The translations under genes and the position numbers were made by a program. Source: Acidobacteriota bacterium (lineage in GTDB: Bacteria; Acidobacteriota; Blastocatellia; Pyrinomonadales; Pyrinomonadaceae). Taken from it: 64,000 nt of DNA. The stretch spans positions 48,405 to 112,404 of the forward strand of contig JAKOVX010000060.1 of the NCBI GenBank assembly GCA_029781855.1. The letters are read 5' to 3'. The notes beneath the pieces are model-generated. The model ran no database searches. It had not been told where the DNA came from and saw only the letters and a list, made by a program, of their open reading frames with translations. Positions 814 to 38,264 of this stretch are shown here, piece after piece (the first letter of the stretch is position 1; every line of letters starts with the position of its first letter).

Positions 814-2952
814 ATGCCTACGACTCAAGACAGAAGATTATTAAAAGTAGCGACGCCGCTGGAATACGATTTCTTACTCATCAAGCGAATTCGTTCTCGC
901 GAGGGTCTATCTCAACTTTTTAGCTTCGATCTTGACCTGCTGCATGCCGAAGAGGCTATCAATCGGGATGCTACCTTCATAGATCCACAGCAGATCCTTG
1001 GAAAGCCGATGGTCGTATCCGTTTCTCAGACTGACGGATCGACGAGACATTTTCATGGGATATGCGTCGATTTTTCGCAGGGTAACCGGAATACACGATT
1101 TTCCAAGTATCGTGCGACCCTCGTCCCTCGGGTTTGGCTTTTAACCCAGATATCACAGAGTCGAATTTTTCAAAACAAGTCGGTTCCCGATATCCTGACC
1201 GAGGTGCTCGAGGGTTTCGAGTTCAGCATTGAGGTTCAGGGGACATTTGAACCGCGAAATTACTGCATTCAATATCGCGAGACCGACTGGAACTTCGCTT
1301 CCCGTTTGATGGAAGAAGAAGGGATCTACTATTATTTCGAGCACACAGAAGATTCCCACAAGCTTATTATTGCCAATACTGATCAGTCGCATCGGCCATG
1401 TCCGTCGAAGTCTGAGGTTCCGTTTATCATGGACTGGTCCCCGAACGAGGACTGGGTCTCACGGATCCTTACGTGGCAAAACGCAAATAAGGTCCGAAGT
1501 GGCAAATTCAGTCTTCGCGACCACAATTTTCAGCTTCCGACCAACTACCTCGAAGCCGAGCAGGTCAGCCGATTCGATATCGGCGGAAACAAGCAGCTTG
1601 AGATATACGATTTCCCTGGTGGCTACTCGAAGCGTTTTGATGGCATTGATTCCGGCGGCGGAGAACAGACCTCTAATCTGCAAAAGGTCTTCGAAGATCG
1701 TCAACGCACTACGAACATTCGTCAGCAGGAGATCGACGTCGCGTACAAGACGAGTTACGGGACAACAGACTGCTGCTCATTCACAGCCGGTTACCGGTTT
1801 ACGATGACGAATCATCCGCGTGGCGACAACAACGGCAGCTATGTGTTGATGAACGTTGGGACCGAGGCGGTACAGTCGCCGGCGTACATTTCAGACGACA
1901 ATGTCTCTAATCCGTATATAGTGAATTTCGCCGTTATTCCCCAGGGGCAAGGCCAGGCACCGTTCCGTCCGCTGCGCCAAACGCCAAAACCGGTGATTCA
2001 TGGCGTGCAGTCGGCCGTTGTCGTCGGCCCCGCCGGCGAGGAGATCTTCACCGACAAGTACGGCCGCGTCAAAGTTCAGTTTCGTTGGGACCGGGAAGGA
2101 AAGTTAGATTCCAATTCTTCCTGTTGGATGCGTGTCGTGCAGACGTGGGCGGGGAACAAATGGGGAACGATGTTCATACCTCGCATAGGTATGGAAGTGA
2201 TCGTCGATTTTCTGGAAGGCGACCCCGATCAGCCGATCATCACCGGTTGCGTCTACAATCCGGACACGATGCCGCCATACACATTGCCGGACGAAAAGAC
2301 CAAATCTACGATCAAGTCTAATTCCAGCAAGGGCGGCGGCGGATTTAACGAATTTCGATTTGAGGATAAAAAGGGATCGGAGCAGATCTTTATCCATGCT
2401 GAAAAGGATCAGGACATTCGTGTAAAGAATGACTGCAAGGAGATCGTCAATCATGACCGCCATCTGATCATCGAGAACGATCAGTATGAAAAGGTCAAAA
2501 AGGACAAACACATGCAGGTCGGCGGCGACCATAATGAGAAGGTCGGCGGGACGATGTCGCTCAACGTCGGCAGCAACCTTCAGGAAAAGGTCTCTCAAAA
2601 TTATGCCCTCGATTCCGGCATGGAGGTCCACATCAAGGCGGGCATGAAGGCGGTCATCGAAGCCGGCGTGCAACTGACACTCAAGGTCGGCGGGAACTTC
2701 GTCGACATCAGTCCGGCAGGGGTCACTATCAAGGGCACGATGGTCCTGATCAATAGCGGTGGAGCCGCCGGATCGGGTTCGGGATCGAATCCAGAAGCGC
2801 CGAAAGATCCGAAAGAAGCTGATAAGGCTGAGCCCGGTCAAAAGACGGCGAAACCACCGACACCGCCGCCCGCACCGGTAAAGTCGCTTGGCCCGATGGC
2901 AGCACTTATGAAAGGTGCGGCGCAATCAGGTGCTCCTTTCTGCGATATATGA
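814..2952 (+). CDS. vgrG: Type VI secretion system spike protein VgrG (TssI)
   Basis: 712 aa with canonical gp27/gp5 signatures: YGRVKVQFRWDREG, SCWMRVVQTWAGNKWG, PRIGMEVIVDFLEGDPDQPIITGCVYN. It has a beta-helix repeat region and a Pro/Lys-rich C-terminal tail ending GAPFCDI. Confidence 0.93.
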   Translation: MPTTQDRRLLKVATPLEYDFLLIKRIRSREGLSQLFSFDLDLLHAEEAINRDATFIDPQQILGKPMVVSVSQTDGSTRHFHGICVDFSQGNRNTRFSKYRATLVPRVWLLTQISQSRIFQNKSVPDILTEVLEGFEFSIEVQGTFEPRNYCIQYRETDWNFASRLMEEEGIYYYFEHTEDSHKLIIANTDQSHRPCPSKSEVPFIMDWSPNEDWVSRILTWQNANKVRSGKFSLRDHNFQLPTNYLEAEQVSRFDIGGNKQLEIYDFPGGYSKRFDGIDSGGGEQTSNLQKVFEDRQRTTNIRQQEIDVAYKTSYGTTDCCSFTAGYRFTMTNHPRGDNNGSYVLMNVGTEAVQSPAYISDDNVSNPYIVNFAVIPQGQGQAPFRPLRQTPKPVIHGVQSAVVVGPAGEEIFTDKYGRVKVQFRWDREGKLDSNSSCWMRVVQTWAGNKWGTMFIPRIGMEVIVDFLEGDPDQPIITGCVYNPDTMPPYTLPDEKTKSTIKSNSSKGGGGFNEFRFEDKKGSEQIFIHAEKDQDIRVKNDCKEIVNHDRHLIIENDQYEKVKKDKHMQVGGDHNEKVGGTMSLNVGSNLQEKVSQNYALDSGMEVHIKAGMKAVIEAGVQLTLKVGGNFVDISPAGVTIKGTMVLINSGGAAGSGSGSNPEAPKDPKEADKAEPGQKTAKPPTPPPAPVKSLGPMAALMKGAAQSGAPFCDI

Positions 2953-2990
2953 CCGTCATAAGAGATTGACCCGGGTGGTCATTTCGATAA

Positions 2991-3509
2991 TTGAACATGA
3001 ACAGTGCAGATTTTCAGCAGCAATTATTTACCGGGCGGACTCACGTCTACGCGGTACTCGATGGAGCATCGATCGATGGCCTTCGCACCCGCATGCATGA
3101 AATGCGGCCCCCGAACTATTGTCTTTTTCCCGGCGAACTCGAACCTGACGTTGCGGAAACTGCACCTTATCTTGTCGGACTCATCGCCGGAACTCCGTTC
3201 ACCGATTGGGTTCTGAAGGAACATTTTGGAAAGCACTGGGGTATATTTGCTCAATCTCGCCAGTCCATCACTGAAATGCGAAAACACTTCCGGGCTCTTG
3301 TTAAGGTTCATACTGAGTCCGGGAAATCGTTGATATTTCGGTACTATGATCCGCGGGTGTTCCGTCGGTTCCTGCCTACGTGCAATGCCGGCGAGCTTGC
3401 GACTTTTTTCGGAAATGTCGACGTGTTTTTCGTTGAGACCGCGGACGGAAACGGAATGTCAGCTTTCAAACTTGAACATAAGAATTTGAAAGAAACACCA
3501 CTGAATTAG
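2991..3509 (+). CDS. DUF4123 domain protein (T6SS effector adaptor/chaperone, Tap/TEC-like)
   Basis: 172 aa with the hallmarks VYAVLDGASIDG and FRYYDPRVFRRFL. It lies immediately after vgrG. The start is TTG 2991 or ATG 2997. Confidence 0.8.
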   Translation: MNMNSADFQQQLFTGRTHVYAVLDGASIDGLRTRMHEMRPPNYCLFPGELEPDVAETAPYLVGLIAGTPFTDWVLKEHFGKHWGIFAQSRQSITEMRKHFRALVKVHTESGKSLIFRYYDPRVFRRFLPTCNAGELATFFGNVDVFFVETADGNGMSAFKLEHKNLKETPLN

Positions 3510-3521
3510 GAGATTTTTATT

Positions 3522-4025
3522 ATGCCGACAGGACCAGCGGCCAGAGCAAACATAGATACGACTGCCCATGGCCTGCCACCGGTCTTGACGCCGGGACCGG
3601 GCAGCCCGACTGTAATAATTGGATTCATGATGGCCTGGCGGGGAATGCCGCTTGCCGCAGTCGCTGCGTTACAGGCTGCCAAGACGGCCGCAGACACCGC
3701 CATTCAAACCGCGGTTGCAGCAACCGCTGCGGCTGCCGGCACACCTGGCGCACCGGCGGCACTTGCCGCCGAGCAGGCGGTTAAGGGTGCGGCTCTGGCA
3801 TCTATGTCTAGTGCGATCACAGGGGCATCCGGTGGTGCAGACATTCATATGTGCGCCGTTCCCTCGCCGGTGCCACCGCACGGGCCGGGCGTCGACATCA
3901 CAGGTTCGGCAACTGTCTCGATCAATATGCTGCCGGCAGGCCGAATGGGGGACACAATATTGGAAGCGATCGGTCCGCCCAACACAATAACGAAAGGCGA
4001 ACCGACTGTGATTATCGGCGGGTAA
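3522..4025 (+). CDS. PAAR-domain spike-sharpening protein with a long Ala-rich internal insert
   Basis: AGGAG lies upstream of the ATG. PAAR-type motifs are present: N-terminal PAAR, MAWRG, DIHMCAVPSPVPPHG, LPAGRMGD and C-terminal PTVIIGG. An insert of about 65 aa, mostly Ala/Thr/Gly, interrupts them. Confidence 0.8.
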   Translation: MPTGPAARANIDTTAHGLPPVLTPGPGSPTVIIGFMMAWRGMPLAAVAALQAAKTAADTAIQTAVAATAAAAGTPGAPAALAAEQAVKGAALASMSSAITGASGGADIHMCAVPSPVPPHGPGVDITGSATVSINMLPAGRMGDTILEAIGPPNTITKGEPTVIIGG

Positions 4026-4047
4026 TGGCCAGAAGGAGAACATCAGA

Positions 4048-4452
4048 GTGCTAGTCATCAGGCAGGAACAAATGAACGCCCTCATCAAAGGCAGCGAAGA
4101 TGAATGGGTCGAATTTCTAGTCTCCAATGTAAAAAAAGAAGATCCTGAGTTGGGGACCAAGTACCAGGACGACGAACTAAAAAGAATGGTGCGCGTCGCC
4201 ATCGAGAAGGCCGACAGCTACGGTTTTGTCAATGCCGACGACCAGTCCGCGTTCGTGTCCATCATGTTCGAGGTAGCACCGAACTTTGACGATCAACCGG
4301 AGATAAAGGCTGTGCTTGAAGAGGAGCAATTGCCGATTTCCTATCGTCTCGATAAGCTTTGGTCAGACGCTATTCCGGATGAAGTATGGGAAAAGGCGCG
4401 TGAAGAATACAAAGAAGAGGCTTGGAAGGGCGACCGTGAAAACGCCGCTTAG
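4048..4452 (+). CDS. Hypothetical acidic protein of a recurrent uncharacterised family seen near PAAR/toxin genes
   Basis: 134 aa with a GTG start and AAGGAG 9 nt upstream. The pattern ML.IR.EQM.A ... YGF ... MFEVAPNFDDQP resembles an unnamed family I recall from T6SS/eCIS-type loci. No TM segment or signal peptide. Confidence 0.6.
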   Translation: MLVIRQEQMNALIKGSEDEWVEFLVSNVKKEDPELGTKYQDDELKRMVRVAIEKADSYGFVNADDQSAFVSIMFEVAPNFDDQPEIKAVLEEEQLPISYRLDKLWSDAIPDEVWEKAREEYKEEAWKGDRENAA

Positions 4453-4466
4453 ATCATCGAGTAAGT

Positions 4467-5087
4467 ATGGCAAATGCCAGACAACGAGCAAAGAAGAGAG
4501 CAGCGAAAGCCGCCGCCGCGGCGCAGGCTAAAGCTGTCGCTCCATGTCCGCAGCCCACACCTGAAGAGATCGAGGCGGCACGCGTAGAAGCGGAATACAA
4601 CAAGATCTCACAGAATGGACACGCCGTTCAGCGGCACGGCGAAGCGATAACCCAACAGCAGCTGACCGATCGCGCGGTCAAAGGCCATGACCCCGTTACT
4701 GGTACAACGGACGACGCTTACAACAAGTATCCGAATGGAACACCTCGTCCGCATATGGCATCAAAGGACGCGACGAAATTTACTTCAAAGGCGGCGATGG
4801 TAAAGGCGGAAGAGGCTGTCCGCAGCAGCCAAAATTACAAAGACGAGTTAAAGAAGGCGAAAGACGACGGAAAGACAATGTTCGCGGTAAAAGGAACTAA
4901 ACTTGAAGACGCTCTCGGCGCTGATTACAAATCAAAGGTTGCCGGTGTCACCCGGCAAGGCTCCAAGAATAATCCAACGGGCAGTGCACCGACGGACTTC
5001 ACAGATGGAACTATTCGAGCCGTTTACAAGAAAGACGCGAGCGGGAATTGGAATCTGCATACGATGTTCCCCGAACCGAAGCCCTAA
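4467..5087 (+). CDS. Putative T6SS cargo toxin, possibly a bacterial RNase A-like (CdiA-CT RNase A type) nuclease
   Basis: 206 aa with a Lys/Ala-rich N-terminus. The GHAVQRHGEAITQQQLTDRA motif and the C-terminal HTMFP resemble the GH..RH ... T.Y pattern of bacterial RNase A-like toxins. The gene position (after vgrG-adaptor-PAAR, before a small acidic ORF) supports an effector role. Confidence 0.55.
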   Translation: MANARQRAKKRAAKAAAAAQAKAVAPCPQPTPEEIEAARVEAEYNKISQNGHAVQRHGEAITQQQLTDRAVKGHDPVTGTTDDAYNKYPNGTPRPHMASKDATKFTSKAAMVKAEEAVRSSQNYKDELKKAKDDGKTMFAVKGTKLEDALGADYKSKVAGVTRQGSKNNPTGSAPTDFTDGTIRAVYKKDASGNWNLHTMFPEPKP

Positions 5088-9111: not shown

Positions 9112-10509
9112 TCAGGCACAGGCAGCCGCCGCGGCCTCCGTTTCAAGGCCGGCGTCGATCCATGCGGTCGTTCCACCTGAGACGTTGTAAACCTTTTTAA
9201 AGCCCGCATTTTCCAGGATGCTGGCACCGAGACTCGACCTGTAACCGGTCTGGCAAATGATATAGGTCGGCACCGAAGGGTCGAGCTTCTCAAATTCGAA
9301 CGGGAGTTTGTCGAGCGGTATATTGGACGTACGAACAGCGTGTCCGGCATTGTACTCCGCGACCCGGCGGACATCGACGAACTGAATTTCTGTCCCGGTC
9401 TTGACCAATTCGTTGACTTCTTCCACCGGCACCTGTTCGATCACATTCAATTCGCCGCTATAGTCACCGATCAGGATATAACCGACTGCCGAGTCGTGCC
9501 CGACGCGGGCAAGCCGCATGAATGCCTCTTCAATTTCAGTAAGTGAACCGGCGACGATCGCGATCCGCGTCCCGATCGGGATCATCGTGCCCGACCACGA
9601 AGCAAACTGCCCGCCGAGCCAAATATTGACCGAGTTCGGAACGTGGCCCGCCCCGAAGTCCGTATTGACCCGAACATCGACAACAACGCCGTCGAATTCA
9701 GCGATCTCCTCGGTCGTCATCTTCCGAGGTTTAGCAAGTTCCTCAAGCGCCGGCGAACCCGCCAGGTTCTTTGCCGCACTTTTCGGAAAGTACATTGGTA
9801 CTTCCGGCTGGTCCGCCGCCACGATCTTTACGAATTCCTCTTTCGACATCGGCTGCAGGGCGTAATTAAATTGCCGCTGGTTGCCCAATGTCGACCACGT
9901 CTCTTTCGAAAGCGATTTTCCGCAGAGCGAACCTGCACCGTGTGCCGGATAAACCTCGGTCTCGTCCGGCAGCGGCAGGATCTTGTCGTGGATCGAATCG
10001 TAGAGCATTTCGCCCATCTGCTCCGCCGTAAAACCTTTCGAGCCGATCAGATCGGGCCGGCCGACATCTCCGATAAACAGCGTATCGCCGGTGAACATCT
10101 TTAACGGAGAGCGGACACTCTTGTCCGCATCGCCGCTCGCGGCGAGATCTTCCGCAAGGATGGTAATGCCCTCCGGCGTGTGGCCGGGCGTCTCGAGAAA
10201 TCGAAGTTTTATCGCCCCGACATTCAGTTCATCGCCATCCTTGACCTTCAGCGTTGGAAACTGGGTATTCGCCCTCTGCCCGTAAATTATCTGAGCTCCA
10301 GTCTTTGATGCCAGCTCAAGGTGGCCGCTTACAAAATCCGCGTGCGAGTGAGTTTCGATCACATACTTGATCTTCTGCCCGTTCGCCTCGGCCTCGTCTA
10401 TGTAATGCTGGATATCCCGCTGCGGGTCGATGATCGCCGCCTCGTCGCCGGATCCGAGATAATACGAAGCGTGGGACAAACACCCAAGATAAAATTGTTT
10501 GAAGTTCAT
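9112..10509 (-). CDS. MBL-fold persulfide dioxygenase fused to rhodanese domains
   Basis: The ETHSHADFVSGH metallo-beta-lactamase motif is followed by two rhodanese-like domains, with a terminal CQTGYRSS active-site loop. Confidence 0.85.
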   Translation of the reverse strand: MNFKQFYLGCLSHASYYLGSGDEAAIIDPQRDIQHYIDEAEANGQKIKYVIETHSHADFVSGHLELASKTGAQIIYGQRANTQFPTLKVKDGDELNVGAIKLRFLETPGHTPEGITILAEDLAASGDADKSVRSPLKMFTGDTLFIGDVGRPDLIGSKGFTAEQMGEMLYDSIHDKILPLPDETEVYPAHGAGSLCGKSLSKETWSTLGNQRQFNYALQPMSKEEFVKIVAADQPEVPMYFPKSAAKNLAGSPALEELAKPRKMTTEEIAEFDGVVVDVRVNTDFGAGHVPNSVNIWLGGQFASWSGTMIPIGTRIAIVAGSLTEIEEAFMRLARVGHDSAVGYILIGDYSGELNVIEQVPVEEVNELVKTGTEIQFVDVRRVAEYNAGHAVRTSNIPLDKLPFEFEKLDPSVPTYIICQTGYRSSLGASILENAGFKKVYNVSGGTTAWIDAGLETEAAAAACA

Positions 10510-10783
10510 GTTCTTATTTCTCCAGTATATGCGTACATTTTACCAATTCCGGAGAAATGCTGCGTGCTTTTTCACAAAGTCGGCACACCGCGCCCCACAA
10601 AATGACGTTCACCAACATCAAACGCAATCAATGTGCCGTTGAAGGAAAGAAATTTGACCAGGTTGGTATGAGTAGGAAGTTGGTAAATAAACCTGCCGGT
10701 TTAGGGGCGGGCTCCTTAGCTGATCGGTCGTCATGAAATTTACCGCCGGGTGATCAGCGATCCTTTAAAATTAGACAAGAACC

Positions 10784-11077
10784 TTACTGCCGCTGATTAT
10801 CCTTTTCCCAATAAATATGTTGGTCAAACTCTTTGTTCCATTTATACTGAGCGTCCTCATTGTTAACGAGCATTCCCGAATCGACACATGCCTCCAAAAT
10901 TGAGAACAATGCTCTGTTTGCGCCACCATTCACCAAGCAAGCCGCCTTGACCGAAAGCCACGTTTCTTGTGACGTATCGAACTTCATTATCCCGAGCAGA
11001 CATCCAACGTAGTAATGTGCAATTTCCGGTTCGACCCAGTTTTCAAATAGTTTTCTGATATCAAGATCATTGTTCAT
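10784..11077 (-). CDS. Hypothetical protein (orphan, low-GC)
   Basis: 97-aa ORF with no motif recognised. Local GC is about 37-40% by hand count of 60-nt lines. Confidence 0.45.
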   Translation of the reverse strand: MNNDLDIRKLFENWVEPEIAHYYVGCLLGIMKFDTSQETWLSVKAACLVNGGANRALFSILEACVDSGMLVNNEDAQYKWNKEFDQHIYWEKDNQRQ

Positions 11078-11263
11078 AGAGTTATTTTTTGAGTTCTCAG
11101 TTTCCCGAGTTATTCAATGGAAACCGGGAACATAATAACGTGGGCCTGACGCATGACCATTTTTACCAGCATCCCTACCCAATCTTCCAGTATTTCCTGA
11201 TAATTTCGTCCGACGCATTCCTGACCTAGATCTGCTTACTCTCGCCGTTAATTTTGGAATCTG

Positions 11264-11830
11264 TCATCGAATCTCAATTTCCGCGATCGCGTTTACAATA
11301 TTTCCCTTTGCTTTCAAGATATCAAGCAGCTCTTGGCCGTAAAGTTTGCGAAAATCCGGAATGCGAGCCACCCACAAATGCCTAAGCGAAATTTTCCATC
11401 GCCCTTTCTCTAGTCGCCAATCTTGGGTCGACTTTGGCGGAATCCGTAAGACCCACTCAATCTTTCGTCCGGGTTTTATAGTCAAAAACATAGGGTAAAA
11501 TGCCCCGGGGCTTGTCGCTCCCCACCCCTTGCCAGCTTTAGGAAATTCGTTATAGAAAGGGACATAGCTAATCGTTATCTCGCCATTGTTTTGCTCATAA
11601 AAGATCGGACTTTGGCTCCAATTGGCTAAGTAAATAACGGAATACGACTTATTTTCGATACAGATGGTCAAGTCTGTAGATTCACCATATGTTACAAGAT
11701 TTGAACTCGGTGTTATGCTTAATCTCACTTCTGGCACTGCTCCACTTCTAGGACGCTCTTGCCCGAAAGTCATCGGGTGATCCGAAGCCAGAATCAACAA
11801 AAAAAGAACTAATAAATATCGAATTCTCAT
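11264..11830 (-). CDS. Hypothetical secreted protein (orphan, low-GC)
   Basis: 188-aa ORF with an N-terminal hydrophobic signal-like segment MRIRYLLVLFLLILAS. No motif recognised. Confidence 0.5.
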   Translation of the reverse strand: MRIRYLLVLFLLILASDHPMTFGQERPRSGAVPEVRLSITPSSNLVTYGESTDLTICIENKSYSVIYLANWSQSPIFYEQNNGEITISYVPFYNEFPKAGKGWGATSPGAFYPMFLTIKPGRKIEWVLRIPPKSTQDWRLEKGRWKISLRHLWVARIPDFRKLYGQELLDILKAKGNIVNAIAEIEIR

Positions 11831-12084
11831 ATGCTTAACTTACCCATAATTGAGCTTCTATAGGAATCGGGGTCGGATCGGCGATATTACGATTCTCAAA
11901 CTGCACGCGATTTGTACGCTTTCATCACTTGGATGCTGGCATTCGACAAAGCGGCGGCTACGAGGGAAGGGGAGAACGAAGCCATTTCCCAAATCTTATC
12001 CCCGAATAACCCGATTGTCACGAAAAATCATATTTCAAACCGTTGCACCAGCCCGCACGTAAGTAAGGGCGGTACACTCAACGC

Positions 12085-12236
12085 GATATCCCGCCGTCCC
12101 GCACTCTCGCACTCTCACCGTCCCGCACTCTCTCTTTCCCTTTGCGCTCTTTGCGTCCTCAACTTCGCGGCCTTTGCGGTAAAAAAGATCGTTAACCGCA
12201 AAGTTCGCTAAGGAAACCCGCAAAGACCGCAAAGTC
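12085..12236. repeat. Short-period tract (CGCACTCT-type) followed by a long imperfect CTTTGCG/CGCAAAG hairpin
   Basis: The left arm cctttgcgctctttgcg...cctttgcgg pairs with the right arm ccgcaaag...cgcaaagaccgcaaag. Same family as 37921-37993 and 38072-38137. Confidence 0.7.
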
Positions 12237-12401
12237 CGCCCCACAACGCTCACAAAGGCGATGTTGCATACATAGGACATTGTGCGACCTACAACAATAT
12301 GCTAGGATAAAATTGACCATCCCGGCAGATCTATCGGCTAGGCGATCTTTGAAAAGCTGAGAGGTGTGAGCCCTATTGACGGAATAAAAGACGTCAATAT
12401 C

Positions 12402-12440
12402 CTTCTTACTTCTGGCTTCCGACTTCTTGCTTCTGGCTCC
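12402..12440. repeat. Heptamer tandem tract (CTTCNNN x5)
   Basis: Reads cttctta cttctgg cttccga cttcttg cttctgg with a 7-nt period. A related tract lies at 12596-12640. Confidence 0.7.
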
Positions 12441-12441
12441 A

Positions 12442-12556
12442 CCGTGCCACTTTATCGAGAGCAAAACGGAAGTGGCACGATATTCGAGCCCAACTATTGC
12501 AAACACGGAGGTTAACCCGTGCCACTTTGTACGTGAAGTGGAACGATTTTGAGCAC
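12442..12556. repeat. Structured element, unit 1 (word GTGGCACG)
   Basis: CGTGCCAC at 12443-12450, GTGGCACG at 12472-12479, CGTGCCAC at 12518-12525 and GTGGAACG at 12538-12545. A 36-nt conserved spacer contains CAACTATTGCAAACA and GGTTAACC. Confidence 0.7.
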
Positions 12557-12647
12557 TGATCGCAGGTCAAGGACGCCGTTCGACGACGCATCCGAAGCTC
12601 AGCTTCTTGCATCTGGCCACTGACCACTGACTACCGCCTTCCGCCGA

Positions 12648-12765
12648 CCGTCTCATTTTCCTCGACCGCGCGCACGAAGTGAGACGATTTTGGGGCTCAA
12701 CTATTGTAAACAGATGGGTTAACCCGTCTCACATTGGCGCGAGATTGAGACGATTTGAGACGACT
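12648..12765. repeat. Structured element, unit 2 (word GTGAGACG)
   Basis: CGTCTCA at 12649-12655, GTGAGACG at 12679-12686, CGTCTCAC at 12725-12732, and TTGAGACG at 12745-12752 and 12755-12762. The 36-nt spacer has identical spacing to unit 1 and carries CAACTATTGTAAACA and GGTTAACC. Confidence 0.7.
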
Positions 12766-12772
12766 ATTTTGG

Positions 12773-13483
12773 TCATCGCCGGTATTCAACGACGAATCGC
12801 GGCGGCTCATCCTCGTCACCGGGCATTTCGGTAAAATTGAGTTCCGTTAGCCCATTTTCGCCAAAACGCGAGAGATCGCGTCGCGAAAGCGGCCACGGCA
12901 GTTCGTCCGGGTCGACGTCGTCTTCCCTTCCGCGTGTGACGACCACGAGTCTGCCATTCTCGGCAACAAACCCGGCCACGGCGTCGATCACCTGCGGCCG
13001 CATTGCGAGCGGCAGCGGTTGGATCGTGTAGACCTCGAGCACGAGATCGAAACCGGTCTTGTCAGTACCACCTGCGGTAGCGGGTGGGCCAGTCTTCGCC
13101 AGCCAGGCCGCAGGCGGTTCGAAAAGGTTGCAGGTCTCAAAAACGATGTCCGTATCCGCGTGGAGACGTTTTGCCCACGCGATCGCCGACGGCGAGATAT
13201 CAAAGGCCGTTACCTTGAACCCGAGATCGTGCAAGTAACGGGCATCATCACCAAGACCGCAGCCCACGACCAACGCAGAGCGTCCGTTACCTTTCAGACC
13301 ATGGGCCTCGGCCCATGCGCGAAAATATTTGTTCGGTTCGAGGTCGGCCCACGGGATGAGTTCGTTGTTTCCATTGGATTCTTTGTACAGGGCCTCAAAC
13401 CAGCCAAACACATCGCCGCGGGCCGCAAAGTCAGCTTGAATTTCCCGTGTCCTTGCTCGGGGATCGAATTCTGATTGTTCCAT
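12773..13483 (-). CDS. Class I SAM-dependent methyltransferase
   Basis: Motif I LVVGCGLGDDARYL, followed by FDISPSAI and a FDLVLEVYT-type post-I region. Confidence 0.8.
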   Translation of the reverse strand: MEQSEFDPRARTREIQADFAARGDVFGWFEALYKESNGNNELIPWADLEPNKYFRAWAEAHGLKGNGRSALVVGCGLGDDARYLHDLGFKVTAFDISPSAIAWAKRLHADTDIVFETCNLFEPPAAWLAKTGPPATAGGTDKTGFDLVLEVYTIQPLPLAMRPQVIDAVAGFVAENGRLVVVTRGREDDVDPDELPWPLSRRDLSRFGENGLTELNFTEMPGDEDEPPRFVVEYRR

Positions 13484-13722
13484 AGAGTTAATTTAGACCT
13501 TGACCACAATATGATCCAATTCCTCAAATTATACACCTCAACGAACGGCGGCCCGAAGTTGTCGAACGCTCCATCGCAAACCGAAGCGACCCGAAGGCCA
13601 CGATCAAAACAGTTAAGATCGGTCGCCCGCCAAATCCTGATCGAGTCACTAGCCTGCTATCCGGGAAACTCCTATAATGGTTGTATACGTTTATTTGAAT
13701 ACAAATTAAGAGGACAAATACA

Positions 13723-36460: not shown

Positions 36461-37774
<1,314 letters not shown>

Positions 37775-37807: not shown

Positions 37808-37831
37808 GTGAAAAAGTGAAAAAGTGAAAAA
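37808..37831. repeat. Octamer tandem repeat GTGAAAAA x3
   Basis: Read directly from the sequence. Followed by a 7-nt-period tract tcattta acactca tcattta ccacttt at about 37886-37915. Confidence 0.7.
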
Positions 37832-37920
37832 GGGGCAAAAGTGAGCGTTGAGCGCCGAACATTCGCCATTTGTTATTTAACAGTCATCATTTAACACTCA
37901 TCATTTACCACTTTTCTCCA

Positions 37921-37993
37921 GCTTTCCTTTGCTCCTTTGCGGCTTGGGGGGGGAAATGATCTCCCGCAAAGACGCTAAGACGCAAAGGAAAGC
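37921..37993. repeat. Long imperfect hairpin of the CTTTGCG/CGCAAAG family (copy 2)
   Basis: gctttcctttgctcctttgcgg ... ccgcaaagacgctaagacgcaaaggaaagc. Confidence 0.75.
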
Positions 37994-38071: not shown

Positions 38072-38137
38072 TTCCCTTTGCTGCTTTGCGGCTTGGCGGG
38101 AAAGATCTCCCCCGCAAAGACGCTAAGACGCGAAGGC
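38072..38137. repeat. Long imperfect hairpin of the CTTTGCG/CGCAAAG family (copy 3, tandem to copy 2)
   Basis: ttccctttgctgctttgcgg ... ccgcaaagacgctaagacgcgaagg. The preceding tcatttacc motif is also shared with copy 2. Confidence 0.75.
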
Positions 38138-38264
38138 GAAACTTGACCGGGGAACGTTCAACTTTGATTATTTACGATCATTTTTCGATTGCTATCGGTT
38201 TTTAGATAATTTTTATCAGTGATCAAAATTTGTGGTACAACTTTGATCATGAAGGTCACAAACC

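Follow-up and report, generated by a model that had tools for sequence, protein, structure and literature searches.

A 64,000-nucleotide (nt) window from the genome of an Acidobacteriota bacterium (GenBank assembly GCA_029781855.1, contig JAKOVX010000060.1, positions 48,405 to 112,404) contains two tandem copies of an inverted-repeat element next to the 3' end of a methyltransferase gene. The two units, at 12443-12552 and 12649-12762 of the window, were delimited by sequence reading and repeat finding, which bear out the tandem units of ~115 nt with a shared layout described in an earlier note on this DNA. The adjoining gene (12773-13483, minus strand) encodes an S-adenosylmethionine (SAM)-dependent methyltransferase, the sequence of which places the window in Pyrinomonadaceae. 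Unit 2 had been thought to begin about 10 nt past the stop codon of this convergent gene; it is instead the end of unit 2 that lies 10 nt from that codon. The units are real copies of a previously undescribed noncoding element family that is conserved in the class Blastocatellia, and no described family with this combination of features was found, Rfam 15 containing none.

Architecture of the two units

Both units follow one plan, in which two 10-bp hairpins, A and C (CGTNNCACTT...AAGTGNNACG), are separated by a 38-nt linker; the words that form the four arms are numbered 1 to 4 from the 5' end. Hairpin A of unit 1 (12443-12479, plus strand, inverted repeat I14) pairs CGTGCCACTT (12443-12452) with AAGTGGCACG (12470-12479) across a 17-nt loop, is 100% complementary and belongs to consensus helix 1 of the family. 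The linker (12480-12517, plus strand) starts with ATATT, contains CAACTATTGCAAACA and ends in GGTTAACC. It leads into hairpin C (12518-12551, plus strand), in which CGTGCCACTT recurs (12518-12527) and faces AAGTGGAACG (12536-12545) across an 8-nt loop, followed by ATTTTG. Hairpin C has a single G-A mismatch, owing to a fourth word that reads GTGGAACG and not GTGGCACG. The claim that every copy of a word within a unit carries the same change thus does not hold strictly, this fourth word being the exception. Hairpin C of unit 1 is perfectly paired (CGTTCCACTT/AAGTGGAACG) in a related contig, L011, where the 5' arm CGTTCCACTT restores the pair that is mismatched in the window.

Unit 2 uses the words CGTCTCA(T/C) and GTGAGACG. 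Its hairpin A (12649-12686, plus strand, inverted repeat I19) joins CGTCTCATTT (12649-12658) to AAGTGAGACG (12677-12686) across a loop and includes one G-U pair, and its linker (12687-12724, plus strand), again of 38 nt, comprises ATTTTGGGG, CAACTATTGTAAACA and GGGTTAACC. The hairpin C region (12725-12772, plus strand, inverted repeats I16 and I20) consists of CGTCTCAC (12725-12732), a loop and TGAGACG (12746-12752), to which are added an extra direct copy of TGAGACG (12756-12762), also kept in L011, and TATTTTGG. The two linkers are equal in length, as had been stated; the length given, 36 nt, is obtained by counting from the trailing AT, and 38 nt separate the 8-nt words.

The 61-nt cores of the units (12469-12529 and 12676-12736) are 77% identical, and both contain CAACTATTG(C/T)AAACA and GGTTAACC, the spacer blocks that the earlier note had singled out as conserved. 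Seven pairs of inverted 8-mers lie at most 60 nt apart, against 0.25 expected, and seven were reached in one of 1000 dinucleotide shuffles. Outside the cluster the words occur in the window at chance frequency, and over-representation of the kind seen for uptake sequences was dropped as an explanation on those counts.

Distribution and rules of the family

Units of the window recur in two related contigs. The contig L010, with a methyltransferase 98% identical to that of the window, carries an identical unit 2. In L011 (methyltransferase 86% identical) both units are present in the same order and with the same words (GTGAGACG; GTGGCACG, GTGGAACG), and their loops differ. The sequence running from a palindrome upstream of the units through the candidate promoter region is nearly identical in L011 and the window, the leader from a boxA-like motif to unit 1 cannot be aligned, and inside the units it is the loops that drift, stems and linker core being kept. 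The noncoding block is missing altogether from more distantly related methyltransferase loci (73-75% identity; L012-L017 and one JGI contig); in these an MBL-rhodanese gene comes directly after the methyltransferase gene, or after one more open reading frame (ORF). As a side observation, two independent Logan assemblies of near-identical strains end inside the block, L009 at window position 12727, within the hairpin C word of unit 2, and L010 at 12645, at the 5' edge of unit 2 hairpin A, a break point at which the window is 49 nt longer than L011. Strain-level indels or assembly trouble at inverted repeats could explain these breaks.

Further copies, the absence of which the earlier note would have counted against the element, exist elsewhere. 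One genome from each of 185,579 species was searched with a generalised pattern, AAGTGNNACGAT-N28-36-AACCCGTNNCAC; of the 12 loci returned, four are chance matches (one a tRNA) and eight have the full architecture. The latter come from six metagenome-assembled genomes of Blastocatellia labelled Pyrinomonadaceae, Chloracidobacterium or Acidobacteria; Pyrinomonadaceae and Chloracidobacterium belong to different orders of the class. Three of the eight loci are in a single genome, Ga0077534, where the copies are only 74-76% identical over 85-185 nt and are therefore old paralogues and not products of recent transposition. The strict pattern gives one to three matches per genome, and these copy numbers are lower bounds. 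The exact core pattern, AACTATTGNAAACAN{3,5}GGTTAAC, is specific to the genus of the window: it has no match in genome contigs, and its eight matches in metagenome contigs, all in unrelated sequence that lacks the word architecture, were discarded as chance hits. The element has no match among viral contigs, plasmids or phages. A covariance model, R1, built from 11 units, detects no additional copies in the window or the other loci; its scores are ~100 bits for the plus strand against ~30 bits for the minus strand.

Seventeen units, representing ~7-9 independent loci, were collected and obey strict rules. In 17/17 units words 2 and 3 span 54-55 nt, and the linker, of 38-39 nt, starts with AT and a T-run, has a CGYAA-like motif near position 12 and ends in TTAACC directly before CGTNNCAC. 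Neither a conserved fold nor a pseudoknot was found in the 38-nt linker across the family. Eight of the 10 pairs in the stems 5'-CGTNNCACTT / AAGTGNNACG-3' (as RNA, 5'-CGUNNCACUU ... AAGUGNNACG-3') are invariant across the two orders. Only the two central NN pairs vary, and they do so on both sides, the first being UA, CG or GC and the second CG or UA. The words are thus not free to differ from unit to unit, as had been supposed: they always have the form GTGNNAC and come from a small set that recurs across genera (GGAAC, GAGAC, GGCAC, GGGAC and GAAAC, mostly GGAAC or GAGAC). Each multi-unit cluster has at least one unit of GGAAC (or GGCAC) type together with one of GAGAC type, and no cluster holds more than two to three modules. 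Most units carry a plus-strand T-run after word 2 (ACGATTTT), which is seen on that strand only. Hairpin loops range from 8 to 22 nt across the family and differ in sequence.

Covariation, which the earlier note had proposed to examine, supports the hairpins. RNAalifold returns exactly the two hairpins, with changes on both sides at the NN positions only. Overall 95% of cells are paired, a value that none of 500 shuffles reached and that compares with 34-45% in slid controls, though relatedness among the members confounds tests of this kind. Partner words match at NN in 24/27 hairpins, three hairpins having an internal NN mismatch or G-U pair (one of the mismatches is a G-U pair). In the orthologous units L018a and L019a all word copies, in both orientations, differ in concert (GGGAC in one, GAGAC in the other).

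The mutually exclusive pairings proposed for each unit are also physically possible. Words 2 and 3 are 94.5% paired, again above all 500 shuffles, which indicates that the whole word set of a unit co-varies. The alternative found by constrained folding is a long nested hairpin (1:4 plus 2:3) whose loop is formed by the linker. This fold differs from the two-hairpin fold by 1-8 kcal/mol and is the minimum-free-energy state for unit 2 of both the window and L011. The hairpins of a single unit differ in word type in L011_U1, L020a and L021a, breaking the 2:3 pairing. In L020b, L021b and L023, word 2 is present but word 1, its partner, is not. The two-hairpin and 2:3 schemes are supported equally well, and equally imperfectly.

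Known classes of repeat and RNA do not accommodate the element, in agreement with the earlier note, which had recognised no riboswitch, CRISPR repeat, attC site or insertion sequence (IS) end. No Rfam 15 family, riboswitches, Acido-1, Acido-Lenti-1 and known small RNAs included, accounts for it: the best hits in 11500-13500 reach 12-19 bits where gathering scores are 50-98, and at gathering threshold 131 kb of member loci yield two tRNAs only, both away from the units. A CRISPR array was rejected on loops that vary in sequence and length, the presence of only two to three modules, linkers that share motifs, and neighbours among which nothing cas-like was seen. A miniature inverted-repeat transposable element or IS end was rejected on the divergence of the Ga0077534 copies, given above, and on the lack of a flanking duplication at the borders of the block in the window or L011. 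An integron attC site does not fit the arms CGTNNCACTT/AAGTGNNACG: the candidate GTTAACC fails GTTRRRY and lies in the linker, and cassette ORFs are lacking. Compared by eye, the words partly resemble sigma-54 and extracytoplasmic-function promoters, LexA (Cheo) boxes, DnaA boxes and parS half-sites, but misfit in spacing or key positions, and none is claimed. Small coding ORFs were likewise rejected, since the differences of L011 from the window include indels whose length is not divisible by three and no alignment of the leader is possible, which marks the region as noncoding. Exact-protein look-ups with a 188-aa ORF from the region and with a spurious 104-aa ORF over the units returned no record.

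Putative leader and genomic context

A boxA-like motif, GATCTTTGAAAA (12344-12355, plus strand), lies upstream of unit 1 and is a candidate binding site for NusB/NusE. Its pattern, GATC[AT]TTGAAA, has a single occurrence in each of the window, L018, L020, L021 and L029, always on the strand of the units and 70-130 nt upstream of the first of them; by our own estimate roughly 0.02 occurrences would be expected by chance in ~192 kb. Variants stand at the aligned position in L011 (GTTCTTTGATAA) and L019 (GATTTTTGAACA), and all seven multi-unit clusters therefore have the motif. Against the published boxA consensus GYTCTTTAANA (PMC5725501), which is gamma-proteobacterial and thus from another phylum, the window motif GATCTTTGAAAA matches at 9/11 positions and GTTCTTTGATA of L011 at 10/11. 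A small imperfect hairpin, seen in the sequence directly 5' of the motif (12322-12337, plus strand), occupies the position of boxB in an rRNA leader. Clearer equivalents of this hairpin are present in L018 (GGCCGG...CCGGCC), L019 (CCGG...CCGG) and L021 (ACTGG...CCAGT).

The candidate promoter region (12264-12308, plus strand) can be read in two ways, either as TTGCAT (12264-12269), 13 nt, TGC and then GACCTA, or as TTGTGC (12280-12285), 17 nt and TAGGAT (12303-12308). The region is strongly conserved in L011 and aligns with TTGACA/TTGACT hexamers and a TGn extended -10-like element in L020, L021 and L029. Hexamers picked out by eye within the linker or hairpin A, on either strand, were not accepted as sigma-70 promoters because no credible -10 accompanies them, and the sole promoter called by a tool, on the minus strand of unit 2, was dropped because it is not conserved. 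Compared with an intrinsic terminator, the hairpins of the window fall short, with stems of 50% G+C, loops of 8-17 nt and ATTTTG as the tail; they might still act as weak terminators or pause sites.

Between the boxA-like motif and unit 1 the leader includes two copies of a C/U-rich, G-poor direct repeat, CTTCTTRCTTCTGGCT (12402-12438, plus strand, direct-repeat family D4), and a third copy (12603-12618) precedes unit 2; the repeats are not conserved in L011. Their composition is rut-like, and they could be Rho loading sites for the boxA leader to override. Directly upstream of the candidate promoter, a long imperfect palindrome of CTTTGCG/CGCAAAG words (12136-12239, no strand assigned, inverted repeats I1, I2, I4 and I5) is near-identical in L011, exceeding the identity of coding sequence (83%). 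Other CTTTGCG...CGCAAAG palindromes of ~60-100 nt lie at 37925-37990 and 38075-38140 of the window and before the promoter of the L029 cluster, each copy standing directly upstream of promoter-like sequence. These palindromes form a separate dispersed family, and the copy beside the units is probably not part of the proposed RNA. The intergenic stretch at 37811-37850, upstream of a myo-inositol-1-phosphate synthase gene (36461-37774, minus strand), contains three direct copies of GTGAAAAA, repeating every 8 nt, and then GGCAAAAGTGAGCG; this run is reminiscent of the AAAGTG-type arrays of words that adjoin some units.

No protein family is common to the flanks of different loci, where the earlier note had proposed to look for consistently encoded proteins. 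The neighbours include cmk, metK, methyltransferases, nitrite-reductase-like and TonB-like genes, and a gene for an AAA_25 protein with a helix-turn-helix (HTH) domain. The next downstream gene is convergent in the window, L011, L019, L020 and L029; its stop codon is separated from the last word by 4-11 nt in three independent loci. Defence-system models matched the neighbouring ORFs only through a generic methyltransferase domain.

Several further observations concern the surroundings of the units. Relatives that do not carry the element (L012, L017 and a JGI contig) have adjacent, co-oriented methyltransferase and MBL-fold rhodanese genes, separated by 19-51 nt in two cases. Their counterparts in the window are the methyltransferase gene described above and an MBL-fold rhodanese gene at 9112-10509. 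Extra rhodanese genes near the pair suggest a sulfur-related operon, which the noncoding block splits in the lineage of the window. A segment of low G+C content (39-45%; 10650-11850), positioned between the palindrome and the MBL-rhodanese promoter, contains ORFs of 97 aa (10784-11077) and 188 aa (11264-11830). Neither has a Pfam or PADLOC match, and the longer has a signal-peptide-like N-terminus. The segment is absent from the otherwise collinear L011 and hence looks like a recent insertion. In L027 (coordinates 1887-5080 of the unit-oriented reverse complement) a single unit immediately follows a gene whose AAA_25 ATPase product ends in an HTH domain; a tRNA gene is nearby, and the region probably represents an integrated mobile element. 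Beyond the unit come four direct copies of CGTCTCA spaced by 10-12 nt, and the linker of the unit contains TATCAATCGGTTA, a perfect match to the IHF-type consensus. L028 (2218-2460) has a single GAGAC-type unit ~50 nt upstream of a canonical promoter (TTGACA-17-TATCAT) of metK, which encodes S-adenosylmethionine synthetase.

Possible functions of the element

We tentatively propose, with a probability of about 0.4, that the cluster is a stand-alone gene for an untranslated plus-strand RNA, in which a Nus/boxA leader precedes bistable double-hairpin modules that are recognised by a trans-acting factor. Transcription would start at the TTGACA / extended -10-like promoter near 12264-12308, and the nascent RNA would present the small hairpin and the boxA-like sequence at 12344-12355. 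This sequence is proposed to recruit antitermination factors of the NusB/NusE type, as in rRNA operons and CRISPR arrays, which would carry RNA polymerase across the C/U-rich untranslated leader and the internal hairpin-plus-U stretches. Each ~115-nt module would then form two 10-bp hairpins and a linker, with a U-rich start and a UUAACC end, and, as its four or five words match, could also fold at similar energy as the long nested hairpin (1:4 plus 2:3) with the linker as loop. Stems of invariant sequence and a linker of fixed length suggest that a trans-encoded factor, either an RNA-binding protein or a nuclease, recognises the modules and would bind, titrate or process them. Modules of GGAAC type and of GAGAC type would both be needed. 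The last hairpin, which abuts the convergent stop codon, probably doubles as a shared 3' end.

The proposed leader resembles that of rRNA-type antitermination systems, in which a boxB hairpin is followed by boxA and which also precede CRISPR arrays and suhB. The 12-nt GATCTTTGAAAA/GTTCTTTGATAA is similar to boxA (PMC5725501), lies tens of nt past a TTGACA-type hexamer and just after a small hairpin, and heads a long untranslated region containing repeats. It differs in being followed by neither rRNA nor a CRISPR array and in its one to two mismatches to the gamma-proteobacterial consensus. There is also a likeness to protein-sponge and tandem small RNAs such as CsrB and RsmX-Z, which similarly occur as several paralogous loci per genome, repeat short conserved motifs in hairpin modules joined by variable sequence, and are stand-alone genes with a terminator-like hairpin end. 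Unlike in those RNAs, the conserved motif of the element is in the stem and not the loop, and no GGA-type CsrA motif is shared by all word types.

Several points count against an RNA gene. The transcription of the region, the strand transcribed and the ends of the RNA are predictions from sequence, as are the functions of the putative promoter and terminators, and dependence on Nus factors, the partner and the processing are likewise proposals; the assignment of boxA is by likeness to a consensus from another phylum. The single units of L023, L027 and L028 have no boxA-like leader. A sigma-70 scan called none of the proposed promoters in the window, L029, L020 and L021, and a terminator scan called none of the hairpins in the window (four), L020, L021 and L029, their loops being too long and their T-runs too short. 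The family comprises few independent loci, and its combination of invariant stems with variable single-stranded parts is the opposite of that found in most small RNAs. Plus-strand G-U pairs (6) are in no clear excess over A-C pairs (4), and this asymmetry was dropped as an uninformative indicator of strand. Finally, some words stand in direct arrays, with a phasing of 10-12 nt and without a complementary partner (three AAAGTGGGACA in L018, two GTGGAACGAAA in L019 and the four CGTCTCA of L027), and such phased arrays fit a protein that binds double-stranded DNA better.

That the words are an array of 10-11 bp sites (AAGTGRRACGR) in double-stranded DNA, bound by one or two sequence-specific proteins such as a winged-helix response regulator, an AbrB/MraZ-like protein or a ribbon-helix-helix protein, seems to us rather unlikely. 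Sites would be arranged as direct repeats at the helical period and as inverted pairs, with one convergent pair set 38 bp apart around an A/T-rich segment, and the potential to form hairpins would be a by-product of having the same sites in both orientations. Such an array would account for the partnerless repeats at 10-12 bp (three in L018a, two to three in L019, two in unit 2 of the window and L011, four in L027), for words that stay invariant across two orders while the sequence between them drifts, for the constant spacing of words 2 and 3 and for local arrays whose words are all of one type regardless of pairing partner. The positions of the L028 unit near the metK promoter and of the L027 unit after a mobile-element gene with an HTH domain are also consistent with it. 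MraZ operators, which consist of GTG(G/T) boxes recurring every 10 bp (PMC12957436), and operator arrays of the PhoB/OmpR type offer a resemblance, and no more, in the GTGG core and 11-bp period of AAAGTGGGACA and GTGGAACGAAA. The arrays of the element differ from them in lying upstream of neither mraZ nor any other common gene, in consisting mostly of inverted pairs with variable spacing, in having a period of 10-12 bp and not strictly 10, and in the frequency of GTGA words; mraZ is not among the Pfam-scanned ORFs beside the cluster or beside the other repeat region of the window. Multi-unit clusters, moreover, have a codirectional or divergent gene on their upstream side and a convergent one on their downstream side, where there is no promoter to regulate, and no candidate binding protein is encoded beside them. 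Inverted pairs with a spacing that varies between 8 and 22 bp would be unusual targets of dimeric DNA binders, the matching of NN within hairpins despite five coexisting word types would not be expected, and the boxA-like leader on the same strand is left unexplained. The last objection applies equally to the idea that the units are extragenic palindromes like repetitive extragenic palindromic (REP) sequences or bacterial interspersed mosaic elements (BIMEs), acting at 3' ends or between convergent genes as mRNA stabilisers, terminators or insulators and not as an RNA gene, which we regard as unlikely. The arrangement of hairpin, fixed linker and hairpin, often in tandem, fits the plan of enterobacterial BIMEs (REP, fixed linker, REP; also RIP), and like these the units are extragenic and found at 3' ends or between convergent genes: the last hairpin is 4-11 nt from a convergent stop codon in three independent loci, and the single units of L027 and L028 are directly downstream of codirectional genes. 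The empty methyltransferase/MBL-rhodanese site in other relatives suggests insertion, and the genome of the window also holds the dispersed CTTTGCG/CGCAAAG palindromes. The IHF-type consensus of the L027 linker would suit such an element but is absent from other linkers. Copy number is low, at one to three loci per genome and one cluster in the 64-kb window and not hundreds of copies, and the words are not over-represented outside the cluster. The hairpins are in direct and not alternating orientation, and copies that diverge within a genome while sharing words across two orders are the reverse of what REP families show.

The remaining explanations are less probable still. The transcript may be a precursor of a new class of scaffolded small RNAs, made under Nus/boxA control, in which each module would fold into the long nested hairpin. 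A trans-encoded protein or nuclease reading the invariant CGUNNCAC/GUGNNACG stem would process or load it, and the 38-nt segment, fixed in length and variable in sequence, would serve as a kind of guide or decoy. We consider this improbable; if true, GGAAC-type and GAGAC-type modules would serve two partners, in a cas-independent system of array, leader and processing specific to Blastocatellia. A cis-acting attenuator or riboswitch, in which competing 1:2, 2:3 and 3:4 pairings gate a terminator and a ligand or protein acts on the 38-nt segment, is very improbable. The attenuator or switch envisaged in the earlier note stands in so far as alternative pairings exist and co-vary, and as in the trp leader the four-segment layout allows mutually exclusive pairings, with plus-strand T-runs (U-runs in RNA) after hairpins. 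The strong 2:3 pairing, the near-isoenergetic nested fold and the units that keep word 2 without word 1 (L020b, L021b and L023), in which 2:3 may matter, speak for a switch as well. It fails in that there is no leader peptide and no co-oriented downstream gene to control in the window, L011, L019, L020 or L029, neighbouring genes differ at every locus, and the linker has neither a conserved fold nor conservation resembling a ligand pocket. The modules are tandem and their stems invariant where those of attenuators drift, three units (L011_U1, L020a and L021a) break the 2:3 pairing by mixing word types, and Rfam offers no match. Chance, or a recent local duplication without function, has a negligible probability: the 77% identity of the window units over 61 nt is what a tandem duplication might leave, yet this explanation is refuted by the conservation of words in both L011 units while loops and flanks diverged and by the recurrence of the architecture in two orders, and it sits poorly with the strong enrichment of inverted repeats and with covariation above all shuffles.

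Acidobacteria are among the most abundant soil bacteria, and we know of almost no acidobacterial regulatory RNAs or noncoding DNA signals. The strict rules that the element obeys across two orders imply a conserved trans-acting partner. If the cluster is a gene for an untranslated RNA, as we propose, it would join rRNA and CRISPR arrays as a third class of untranslated transcript dependent on Nus/boxA, and would provide a handle on a new hairpin-specific RNA-binding protein or nuclease. If the words are instead binding sites in DNA, they would define the recognition code of a global DNA-binding protein. On either reading, covariance model R1 can be used to annotate such loci.

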